64,000 nucleotides of DNA, taken from the IMG/VR virus record IMGVR_UViG_3300020374_000001; one strand, given 5' to 3'. Under the pieces are notes generated by a model. That model was given only the letters and a program-made list of their open reading frames with translations. It had not been told where the DNA came from and did no database searches. Position numbers and translations under genes: made by a program. This document shows, piece after piece, positions 43,295-45,726 of the stretch. The first letter of the stretch is position 1; each line of letters begins with the position of its first letter. The DNA is from a virus (Duplodnaviria; Caudoviricetes).

Positions 43295-44500
43295 ATGTTA
43301 TTAAATGATAAACAAAGAAACTTTATAGAACTATGCTATAAAGAGTTTGGTGATATAAAAGAAATCACTAGAACACAACTAGTCAAGGTTGAGAAGAAAC
43401 ACAAAGTTTCTTTTCCACAATGGTTAGTGTCAAATAAAGACCTTAAATTAAAAAAAGGTCTATTCAAAATGCCATCTGGTTCAGATACAGATGTGGAAAA
43501 ACCAAATACTATGGAGAAAGTTGTAAAACCTACAACTGAAAAAGAGGCGGCTTATATCGTTTCTACTCTAACGGACAATGTTGTTCCTAATAAGGATAAA
43601 AACTTTGTAAGTTTTGGTAACTATCCAGACGTAAAATCAATTATTAAATCTAATAGATTTTATCCTGTGTTTATAACAGGTCTTTCTGGTAACGGTAAAA
43701 CTCTTGCCGTGACTCAGGCGTGTGCTGATTTGAAAAGAGAATTAATTAGAGTTAATATAACAATTGAAACAGACGAGGACGATTTGCTTGGTGGTTTCAG
43801 ACTTAAAGACGGACAAACGGTCTGGTCTAATGGTCCGATCATTGAGGCAATGGAGAGAGGTGCTGTTCTTTTACTTGACGAGATTGACCTTGCAAGTAAT
43901 AAGATAATGTGTTTACAACCTGTCCTTGAAGGTTCAGGTATCTTTGTTAAGAAGATTAACAAATGGGTAACACCTAAATCTGGTTTCAATGTAATTGCTA
44001 CTGCAAATACTAAAGGTCAAGGATCCGAAGACGGTAAGTTTATCGGTACTAATGTTCTTAACGAGGCATTCCTTGAAAGATTTCCAGTAACTTTTGAACA
44101 GAAATATCCATCTGTTGCTATAGAAAAAAAGATTTTAAATAATACTTTAAAGTCTTATGGTAAATCAGATGTTAAATTCATTGACAAGTTAACTACTTGG
44201 GCAGATGTAATTAGAAAAACCTACTTTGATGGTGGTGTTGACGAAATTATATCTACAAGAAGACTTGTACATATTACACAGGCATATTCAATCTTTGCTA
44301 ATAAGATGAAGGCAATTCAAATGTGTACAAATAGATTTGATGATGATACAAAAAATTCTTTTGTGGAGTTATATACTAAAGTTGACGCTGGTGCTTCTGC
44401 TGATCAAATTATAGATCAACAGAAAAAGGCAGAACTTGAATCACAAATAGAAGACAACGATAGTGAGTCGGATGAGGAGGATGATTCTGAATCAATCTAA
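43295..44500 (+). CDS. cobS: CobS-like MoxR AAA+ ATPase
   Basis: GLSGNGKT, ETDEDDLLGGFRL, LLDEID, NEAFLERF, ISTRRL. Confidence 0.9.
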   Translation: MLLNDKQRNFIELCYKEFGDIKEITRTQLVKVEKKHKVSFPQWLVSNKDLKLKKGLFKMPSGSDTDVEKPNTMEKVVKPTTEKEAAYIVSTLTDNVVPNKDKNFVSFGNYPDVKSIIKSNRFYPVFITGLSGNGKTLAVTQACADLKRELIRVNITIETDEDDLLGGFRLKDGQTVWSNGPIIEAMERGAVLLLDEIDLASNKIMCLQPVLEGSGIFVKKINKWVTPKSGFNVIATANTKGQGSEDGKFIGTNVLNEAFLERFPVTFEQKYPSVAIEKKILNNTLKSYGKSDVKFIDKLTTWADVIRKTYFDGGVDEIISTRRLVHITQAYSIFANKMKAIQMCTNRFDDDTKNSFVELYTKVDAGASADQIIDQQKKAELESQIEDNDSESDEEDDSESI

Positions 44501-44816
44501 ATCTATCAATCATAGTGTTAGTCCAAAGGAGGCGACTTCGGTCGCCTCTCTAAAAGGTACGGTAACACTAGAACTAAAAAAGAAAACATTACACCAAGTT
44601 TATAATCAAGTTATGATGTGTGAAGAATTAGGGTTTCCAAATTTTGCAAAAGGTGAACCTATCAATAATTTAATGAGAGAGATAAAAAAACAAGTGAAAA
44701 AAAGAAGTAAACAAGATAAAATGGGTTGGAAAGAATTACTAGATTTCTGGCCGTTGAGTATAGTAGTACCTGGTATGTTAATATTAATTATGATGGCGAA
44801 TGTATTTCAATGGTAA
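44463..44816 (+). CDS. Hypothetical protein with C-terminal membrane anchor (start uncertain)
   Basis: Hydrophobic FWPLSIVVPGMLILIMMANVF tail. Confidence 0.5.
   Translation: MSRMRRMILNQSKSINHSVSPKEATSVASLKGTVTLELKKKTLHQVYNQVMMCEELGFPNFAKGEPINNLMREIKKQVKKRSKQDKMGWKELLDFWPLSIVVPGMLILIMMANVFQW
44529..44548 (+). other. C(UUCG)G extra-stable RNA hairpin downstream of cobS
   Basis: GAGGCGAC-TTCG-GTCGCCTC, no U tract. Confidence 0.75.
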
Positions 44817-44835: not shown

Positions 44836-45045
44836 TTGAGTATTACGATAGAAGTTAGAAGAGGAAATGTTGAACAGGCTATGCGTGTTTTAAAACGTAA
44901 AGTACAAAAGGAAGGCATAGTAAAAGAATTAAGACAAAGACAATATTACGAAAAACCGTCTGCTAAAAAGAGAAGAAAAAGAAAAGAAAATATAGCAAAT
45001 TGTAAAAAATTAAAGAAAAAATTAGAACGATTAAGAGGATATTAA
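44836..45045 (+). CDS. rpsU: Phage-encoded ribosomal protein bS21
   Basis: V..GNVEQAMRVLKRK..KEG....LR.RQYYEKPS.K.R; TTG start with GGAGGT RBS. Confidence 0.93.
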   Translation: MSITIEVRRGNVEQAMRVLKRKVQKEGIVKELRQRQYYEKPSAKKRRKRKENIANCKKLKKKLERLRGY

Positions 45046-45053
45046 GTTTGAAA

Positions 45054-45185
45054 GTTTTGCGTTGGTGATAGATAAATATATAATGTTGGGGCTATTCGTA
45101 AGTCCCCACGCAGAAACCCGATTAAGGAATTAGTCGGTGTCGCAAAACGCAGGTTTGCCACTTACTGCGTGAACAAAAAAGTGGC
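45054..45185 (+). ncRNA. Putative structured RNA: two hairpins plus an H-type pseudoknot
   Basis: Hairpin 45085-45109 (UUCG loop), hairpin 45118-45137 (GGAA tetraloop), pseudoknot ACGCAG/CTGCGT + GCCACTT/AAGTGGC; GATAAATA late box at 45071. Confidence 0.65.
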
Positions 45186-45217
45186 TTGACATTTATATAA
45201 TAATGATTATATAAATA
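45186..45217 (+). promoter_or_regulatory. hsp20 promoter: TTGACA -35 plus an overlapping late box TATAAATA (45210-45217)
   Basis: Both consensus elements are present. Confidence 0.7.
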
Positions 45218-45220
45218 TTA

Positions 45221-45279
45221 GTAGAACGCCATAATGGGTTCTACAAAATGAAACTCGCTTAACAAAGGAGGTTTAAATG
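45221..45279 (+). promoter_or_regulatory. ROSE-like RNA thermometer in the hsp20 5' UTR
   Basis: 5' hairpin GTAGAAC/GTTCTAC, then AAACTCGCTT-aaca-AAGGAGGTTT pairing the SD with a UCGCU motif. Confidence 0.7.
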
Positions 45280-45726
45280 ACCAATAAAGCAATTTCAATT
45301 TTTAATCAGTTAAGACCATTATCAGTAGGATTTGATGATGTATTTGACCACTTTGAGTCAATGTTTAATCATCAATATGATTCTATAAATGTTCCTAACT
45401 ATCCACCATACAACATAATTAAGACAGGTAAGTACACTTATGATATACAAGTGGCACTTGCAGGGTATGGTAAAAAAGATGTAGATGTATCGTTTGAGAA
45501 TAGCATCCTAACAATCAAGTCTGTAAAGGACGAAGATGAAAAAGAAGTATCTGATAATGACGGTGTACTTCATAAGGGTATTGCTAAACGTATGTTTACC
45601 AAGTCTTTCACAATCGCTGATGAGGTAGAAATCAAAGGTGCTGAACTGAAAGATGGTCTTTTATGTGTATCTATGGAAAGAGTTATTCCAGATCACAAGA
45701 AGGCTAGAACTATTAAAATTAAGTAG
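45277..45726 (+). CDS. hsp20: Small heat shock protein Hsp20 (IbpA-like)
   Basis: NYPPYNI, ALAG, HKGIAKR.F..SF, A.LKDGLL. Confidence 0.96.
   Translation: MTNKAISIFNQLRPLSVGFDDVFDHFESMFNHQYDSINVPNYPPYNIIKTGKYTYDIQVALAGYGKKDVDVSFENSILTIKSVKDEDEKEVSDNDGVLHKGIAKRMFTKSFTIADEVEIKGAELKDGLLCVSMERVIPDHKKARTIKIK

Follow-up and report, generated by a model that had tools for sequence, protein, structure and literature searches.

Positions 45054–45185 (+ strand) of the window, by which we mean the whole 64,000-nucleotide stretch analysed here, encode an RNA of about 135 bases that folds with a true pseudoknot and whose structure is supported by evolution. The element belongs to the gene of the ribosomal protein bS21, stays with it when other genes part S21 from hsp20, is kept by nearly every related phage and matches no catalogued RNA family (Rfam 15). 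Overall, we interpret it as a phage-specific structured RNA that pelagimyophages encode immediately after bS21 and that would occur in two forms and have a protein partner, and we hold this explanation as a whole to be about evenly balanced between right and wrong.

The source phage is a T4-like pelagimyophage (SAR11-type ocean phage) related to HTVC008M and Mosig. Its hsp20 region shares 68–73% DNA identity with these two Pelagibacter phages, and clamp and clamp-loader genes are found downstream of hsp20. The hosts of pelagimyophages, SAR11, are the most abundant bacteria of the ocean, and S21 is among the pelagimyophage core genes (PMC7029224). In the window, the bS21 gene (rpsU; 44836–45045, + strand, stop codon at 45043–45) comes from the ORF list and was identified by Pfam (Ribosomal_S21, E 2e-18), as was the hsp20 gene (45277–45726, + strand; HSP20, E 2.9e-13). 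The gap between them, 231 nt in length, houses the RNA element. A preliminary description had placed a structured, pseudoknotted RNA between these two genes, and all of its features were found at the positions it gave, with both flanking genes confirmed by Pfam. Farther upstream, a GC-rich hairpin (GGAGGCGAC-UUCG-GUCGCCUC; 44524–44545) is located just 3' of a CobS-like gene (43295–44500) and may be a terminator or stabiliser; it sits within a called ORF of 117 aa (44463–44816), whose start it makes somewhat doubtful.

The element consists of three helices (P1, P2 and P3) and an H-type pseudoknot (S1 and S2). The 5' arm of P1, GUUUUGCGU (45054–45062, + strand as for all parts below), begins 8 nt past the S21 stop codon and pairs with ACGCAGAAAC (45108–45117), in which G45113 is bulged. 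The 5' arm of P1 is followed by an AT-rich bulge of 24 nt (45063–45086), which contains the boxes GATAAATA (45071–78) and AATATATA (45075–82). Next comes the P2 hairpin (45087–45108; stem 45088–91/45104–07), whose conserved apical loop is GGCUAUUCGUAAGUCC. The hairpin is real and UUCG is present in it, as described before, but the loop is a conserved one of 12 nt (GGCnnYUCRUAAGNCC, with UUCG contained) and no UUCG tetraloop; it fits GGYNNYTCRTAARNCC, a sequence with a single occurrence in the window. The P3 hairpin (45118–45137; 45118–25 with 45130–37) carries a GGAA loop. Its reading as a GNRA-capped hairpin holds for this loop and for the helix, which covaries; in relatives, however, a GNRA loop is not a conserved feature. 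P3 runs into the junction GGUGUCGCAAAAC (45136–45148), which is nearly invariant in most groups and swapped in some divergent ones.

The 3' part of the element consists of two supported helices which interleave, as in an H-type pseudoknot: S1 (45147–45170) pairs 45147–52 with 45165–70, and S2 (45157–45185), whose 5' arm lies within the S1 loop, pairs 45157–63 with 45179–85. The pseudoknot loops are 4, 1 and 8 nt long (L1 GUUU, L2 A and an A-rich L3, GAACAAAA, at 45171–78), and the 3' end at 45185 abuts the -35 box of the next promoter. This arrangement is exactly the one proposed in the preliminary description. The intergenic fold has a z of -4.5, with none of 200 shuffles equally stable. A scan of the 64-kb window for this pseudoknot geometry returned a single site, and 20 shuffles gave none. 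A phage-wide terminator motif was ruled out, since the window contains only this single site.

In Rfam 15, the whole window gave no matches at gathering thresholds, which agrees with the earlier statement that no known family could be recognised. At E<=10, the region 44950–45350 yielded only matches that fall far short of the thresholds, to S15-Flavobacteria, nos_TCE, a snoRNA and, beyond the limits of the element, ROSE_3. The larger relatives of the element have no Rfam matches either, ARAGORN found no tRNA or tmRNA genes in the window, and two published surveys of pelagimyophages do not mention the element. The Rfam families GEMM, manA, wcaG, SAM-II, SAM-V and preQ1 did not match the element, so the loose resemblance to GEMM and manA/wcaG RNAs suggested earlier found no support. 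A coding reading was also rejected: the small ORFs over the element (from an ATG before P2 and a GUG at 45138) vary in length and frame between groups, and a 39-aa ORF on the minus strand overlaps the helices.

For the comparison with relatives, we used 80 viral contigs retrieved via hsp20 and later 80 retrieved via S21. Blastn of the intergenic region against cultured phages gave chance matches only; the divergence of the copies in HTVC008M and Mosig is beyond the reach of blastn, and these copies were located by reading and with a covariance model. A single-sequence nhmmer search already revealed about 40 loci with the element. The covariance model was built from 16 diverse copies and covers P1, P2, P3 and S2 of the pseudoknot. 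Its matches are never more than one per source and all lie on the + strand: 69 of 83 sources have one in the first (hsp20-derived) set and 79 of 80 in the S21-derived set, where the sole miss is a contig that ends inside S21. The + strand of the element follows from these one-sided matches together with the frequent G-U pairs. A loose pattern scan of viral contigs returned mostly chance matches, yet 7 of the first 100 stretches scored with the model, 4 of which are additional loci, all in the S21 context where the contig allowed.

All five helices covary among 49–63 distinct homologues, with 94–96% of the cells paired compared with 35–52% in slid controls. In structure alignments fitted to the covariance model, where S1 alone is outside the model, 49 distinct sequences have standard pairs in 94.4% of the cells, against 35–47% when the partners are slid by 1–3 columns, and 30 of the 35 pairs are changed on both sides. 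The S21-derived retrieval gave a similar picture (63 distinct sequences; 96.1% paired; both-side changes in 26 of 29 pairs). Helix by helix, both sides changed in 9 of 9 pairs of P1 (96–99% of cells paired), in all 6 modelled pairs of P3, whose loop sequence is variable, and in 7 of 8 pairs of S2 (96–98% of cells paired). The lower stem of P2 covaries as well, while its two top G-C pairs are fixed in 60 of 60. S1, although unmodelled, has both-side changes in 4 of 6 pairs, for example CGCAG/CUGCG, CGGAG/CUCCG, CGCUG/CAGCG and CCGUG/CUCGG.

The fact that the preliminary description lacked is the tie of the element to the bS21 stop codon: of 80 S21 loci in phages, 79 have the element starting 0–16 nt past this codon. 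Likewise, in the 49-locus set the bS21 gene ends 0–16 nt upstream of the element (64 nt in two cases) in 46 of the 47 loci with a called upstream ORF; HTVC008M is the exception, and two contigs begin too near the element to show the upstream gene. Among the best 54 cellular rpsU loci (the closest bacterial ones), none has the element beside it; a cellular origin was ruled out on this ground, and the element appears to be phage-specific as far as these loci can tell.

The linkage to hsp20 is looser. Among 67 informative loci on the hsp20 side, the element is within 260 nt in 53 and about 1–1.2 kb off behind another gene in 13, and one locus has no element in 978 nt. In Mosig, the element trails S21, and hsp20 is 1.4 kb further downstream. 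The genes that intervene before hsp20 (a DNA methylase and two families of unknown function) are unrelated to each other. An alternative, which we consider unlikely, is that the element is a regulatory leader of the downstream gene, usually hsp20, in the form of a riboswitch or a protein-controlled attenuator whose pseudoknot and terminator set the read-through. It would account for the 53 of 67 informative loci where the element abuts the hsp20 promoter, for HTVC008M and L326, where it stays beside hsp20, and for the U-tract that some copies have after stem 2. However, no riboswitch family matches, the next gene is unrelated in 13 loci (a DNA methylase or a gene of unknown function), and hsp20 has a conserved promoter and a ROSE-like leader of its own downstream of the element, which is why we do not regard the element as the hsp20 leader.

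This promoter (45186–45217, + strand) lies outside the element and marks its 3' border. It consists of TTGACA (45186–91), a spacer of 18 nt and TATAAA, which overlaps a late box TATAAATA (45210–17), and it is conserved in relatives in the form TTGACA or TTGTAA, 17–18 nt and TATATAAATA. The ROSE-like leader (45220–45276, + strand) reaches 26.5 bits with Rfam ROSE_3, under the gathering score of 43; it contains a hairpin (GUAGAACGCC...GGGUUCUAC) that covaries by eye in relatives, and the leader pattern is UUGCU...AGGAG. In the region 45186–45282, CUCGCU lies opposite the AGGAG Shine-Dalgarno sequence. A riboswitch for hsp20 is not supported: the conserved promoter intervenes between the element and hsp20, and the downstream genes (hsp20, an N6_N4 DNA methylase and two unknown-function families) have no common function. 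Nor does the element overlap or control a translation start in the manner of an autogenous ribosomal-protein operator, as it lies past the S21 stop codon. In several unrelated element groups (L018:2090-2160, L043, L034, L068, L050, L019, L061, L065, L028 and L103), a near-perfect palindromic hairpin of about 62 nt (ACTTATAGATATTCACTAGGG...CCTAGTGAATTTCTATAAGT) is inserted ahead of the hsp20 promoter, on the 3' side of the element. The window lacks this insertion, which looks like a mobile or processing hairpin.

Across the family, the partner of 45054–62 is 45108–17, which together form P1. The preliminary description had paired this 5' arm differently: GTTTTGCG (45054–61) is a perfect 8-bp complement of CGCAAAAC (45141–48) in the window, so that a read-through transcript could fold differently. 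As a switch, the arm would alternate between two partners, and pairing with CGCAAAAC would break the pseudoknot in read-through transcripts. The complement does exist, and in the window itself it is the choice of minimum free energy. RNAfold prefers it for this sequence; its duplex has -11.1 kcal/mol, compared with -9.2 kcal/mol for P1, and the whole fold has -37.1 to -40.5 with the 45141–48 pairing versus -33.3 with P1. Partial complementarity (5–6 of 8) is also kept in two other groups. But the pairing is 8/8 only in the clade of the window (13 of 49 distinct sequences), shows no compensatory changes and is missing from divergent groups, in which P1 has by far the greater stability; outside this clade the 45141–48 duplex reaches -4.8 to -6.8 kcal/mol and P1 -9.6 to -15.9. 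The 5' arm differs across the family (UUUUACAC, UUUUACGCC, AUUUAACGCU, CCUAUAAG, CCAUGCC, UUUGUCCUC), and its complement is always directly 3' of P2, whether GUCGCAAAAC is unchanged or replaced. A switch of this kind is very improbable as an explanation of the element; it is clade-specific at most and is not a family property.

The bulge between P1 and P2 contains a NATA(A/T)ATA box in all 87 distinct copies, and the distance from the box end to the first P2 pair is 5 nt in 61 and 4–6 nt in 80 of these 87. Most copies carry TATATATA, not the consensus TATAAATA, while L287 and L326 have a perfect TATAAATA box. All 14 copies of TATAAATA in the window are on the + (gene) strand, although about 7 per strand would be expected, a bias that agrees with a late promoter of the T4 type. 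Among AT-only 8-mers, avoidance in the window is strongest for ATATATAT (0 vs 12.6 expected), AATAAATA (1 vs 15.4) and TATATATA (2 vs 13), which also suits a promoter. For three NATAAATA boxes ((C/G)ATAAATA; window 29281, 29516 and 55557), an ATG stands exactly at the sixth base after the box and opens an ORF (76, 208 and 117 aa, respectively) with in-frame stops 24–72 nt upstream. These ORFs may be leaderless late mRNAs, a point of note in a phage that encodes bS21. In addition, the distance from the hsp20 late box to the first leader hairpin is the same as that from the element box to P2. Both the ATG positions and this hairpin spacing fit a transcript start six bases after the box, and in the element this position is the foot of P2.

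Judging from these box positions, we slightly favour the view that the AT-rich bulge is a T4-type late promoter and that a late RNA of about 100 nt starts at the P2 foot (about 45084–88). The GATAAATA box, which the preliminary description had read as a late box, is plausibly a late promoter, and two transcript forms are likely. A sigma-70 promoter with its -35 box in the P1 arm was rejected because the bulge is just about 10–15 nt in L304, L301 and L126. Published attempts at predicting pelagimyophage late promoters failed (PMC7029224), and the element would offer a first sequence-level hold on them.

The same region can be explained in a simpler way, as a pure 3' untranslated region of the S21 mRNA with a protective or processing structure and no internal promoter, which we regard as possible but not probable. 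The bulge would then act as a signal at the RNA level, for instance a single-stranded site for RNase E or S1 between two helices, and the role of the pseudoknot would be to stop 3' exonucleases or to terminate transcription. P1 begins so close to the stop codon (0–16 nt) that it must be co-transcribed with S21, the boxes are mostly TATATATA instead of TATAAATA, and a U-tract follows the last stem in L308, L326 and L314, all of which suit this explanation. Against it, the fixed 5-nt distance between box and P2 and the perfect late boxes of L287 and L326 fit a promoter. Moreover, a simple hairpin would suffice for protection, while the invariant loops suggest a specific partner, and in HTVC008M and L326 the core persists without P1 and away from S21.

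The variant forms in relatives indicate that the element is modular. In L326, where an inserted gene parts S21 from the element, P1 is lost, while the perfect TATAAATA, the 5-nt distance, P2, P3 and the pseudoknot are retained, with a U7 tract after them. HTVC008M has a reduced copy without P1 (L001:2391-2488) that adjoins hsp20, with gp110 between S21 and the copy; it consists of the box CATAAATA, two hairpins that share a CUCGUAAAU loop and a small pseudoknot (GAG/CUC, GGCAGU/ACUGCC). Both arrangements, that of L326 and the reduced one of HTVC008M, have the look of a small-RNA gene that is complete in itself. As the core is kept in both phages although it does not adjoin S21, the RNA need not be in cis to S21. 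The U-tract after the last stem is a feature of some lineages (L308, L326, L314), and most copies have a weak one after the pseudoknot, with 4–5 U in 10 nt, so that a discrete 3' end is only putative in the window.

At the other extreme, phages of the Mosig type and several uncultured ones have versions of 230–400 nt with extra pseudoknots and no Rfam matches. Such longer versions with extra conserved modules were observed at L002:968-1340 (Mosig) and L333:313-700 and in L287, L321, L329, L062 and L067. One extra module consists of GGUGGAUUGUUUCAGCAUUUGCGCUUAGUUUCGCACCACC, an A-rich linker and GCUGCGG and resembles a second pseudoknot; another is a GGGCUCAUUGGUCUUCGUAGCAC... domain. The longer RNA versions overlap the annotated Mosig_00015 and Mosig_00014, which makes these small ORFs doubtful, and the element suggests that both are really RNA.

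Returning to the explanation with two RNA forms and a protein partner, the first form is the S21 mRNA, which continues past the stop codon into the element and forms P1. Co-transcription with the end of S21 is shown by P1 itself, which could not otherwise be selected. P1 closes over the AT-rich bulge and P2, followed by P3, the junction and the pseudoknot, and since it abuts the stop codon, terminating ribosomes would melt it, which would fit a coupling to S21. The second form would be the late transcript starting from P2, whose 5' domain, without the 5' arm of P1, would be another one.

Mere protection of the mRNA end would not call for an invariant loop, fixed G-C pairs and a conserved junction, which point to a specific partner instead. 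In OLE RNA, bS21 is known to bind a helix whose conserved G-C pairs are essential (Wencker, Lyon and Breaker 2025, PMC12054373). Because of this binding and because its gene is the constant neighbour of the element, bS21 is the obvious candidate. We therefore propose only tentatively that the invariant surfaces (the two fixed G-C pairs, the 12-nt P2 loop and the junction GGUGUCGC) could be protein-recognition sites and that their partner could be bS21, in which case the RNA would buffer phage S21 or feed back on it. An RNA that travels with almost all phage S21 genes offers a testable handle on what a virus gains by having a ribosomal protein, namely a defined fold of 135 nt, invariant surfaces to mutate and a candidate protein.

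On the ribosome, bS21 touches the Shine-Dalgarno/anti-Shine-Dalgarno helix. By analogy, the RNA might be a bS21 partner made by the phage, in which P2, with its fixed G-C pairs and its CCU strand, imitates this helix; this is a speculative and rather improbable extension. If it were true, the phage could hold, deliver or titrate S21, its own or that of the host, and retune host ribosomes, while the promoter inside the helix would serve as a timer, turning an RNA that is masked within the early S21 mRNA into one that is free late in infection.

Several known systems share some of these properties, and the nearest analogies (the promoter-in-hairpin control of T4, the bS21 site of OLE RNA, the pseudoknotted ribosomal-protein operators and the small RNAs of T4) are functional. 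The manA, wcaG and GEMM RNAs (Rfam RF01745, RF01761, RF01051) are structured and have marine-phage sources or similarly spaced helices, but the element gives no match to any of them even at E<=10. The species 1 and 2 RNAs of T4 (rnaC and rnaD), which have no known function, are also small structured RNAs of T4-like phages; their sequence and structure are unrelated to those of the element and their genomic context is different. The operators of E. coli S15 (rpsO) and S4 (alpha operon) are autogenous ribosomal-protein operators with pseudoknots. Like the element, they are pseudoknotted RNAs adjoining a ribosomal-protein gene, but they are located in the 5' leader over the start site, whereas the element is 3' of its gene and overlaps no start site.

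A closer parallel for the promoter comes from T4 itself, in which the genes e, soc, 49 and I-TevI have late promoters inside hairpins of read-through transcripts. In these hairpins, as would be the case in the element, the helix arms flank the late box, and only transcripts started upstream form the helix, which late transcripts lack. The T4 helix hides a ribosome-binding site, while the element has no conserved ORF or start site and its product would be the folded RNA. For the partner protein, the parallel is the bS21 site of OLE RNA, which differs from the element in that the RNA around it measures 600 nt and comes from Bacillota; the two are not homologous in sequence, and the link to bS21 is here one of genomic adjacency alone. 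The P2 helix of the element carries AGG/CCU, a partial look-alike of the Shine-Dalgarno/anti-Shine-Dalgarno duplex. Both OLE RNA and the element are structured non-coding RNAs tied to bS21, and each has a short helix in which it matters that the conserved pairs are G-C.
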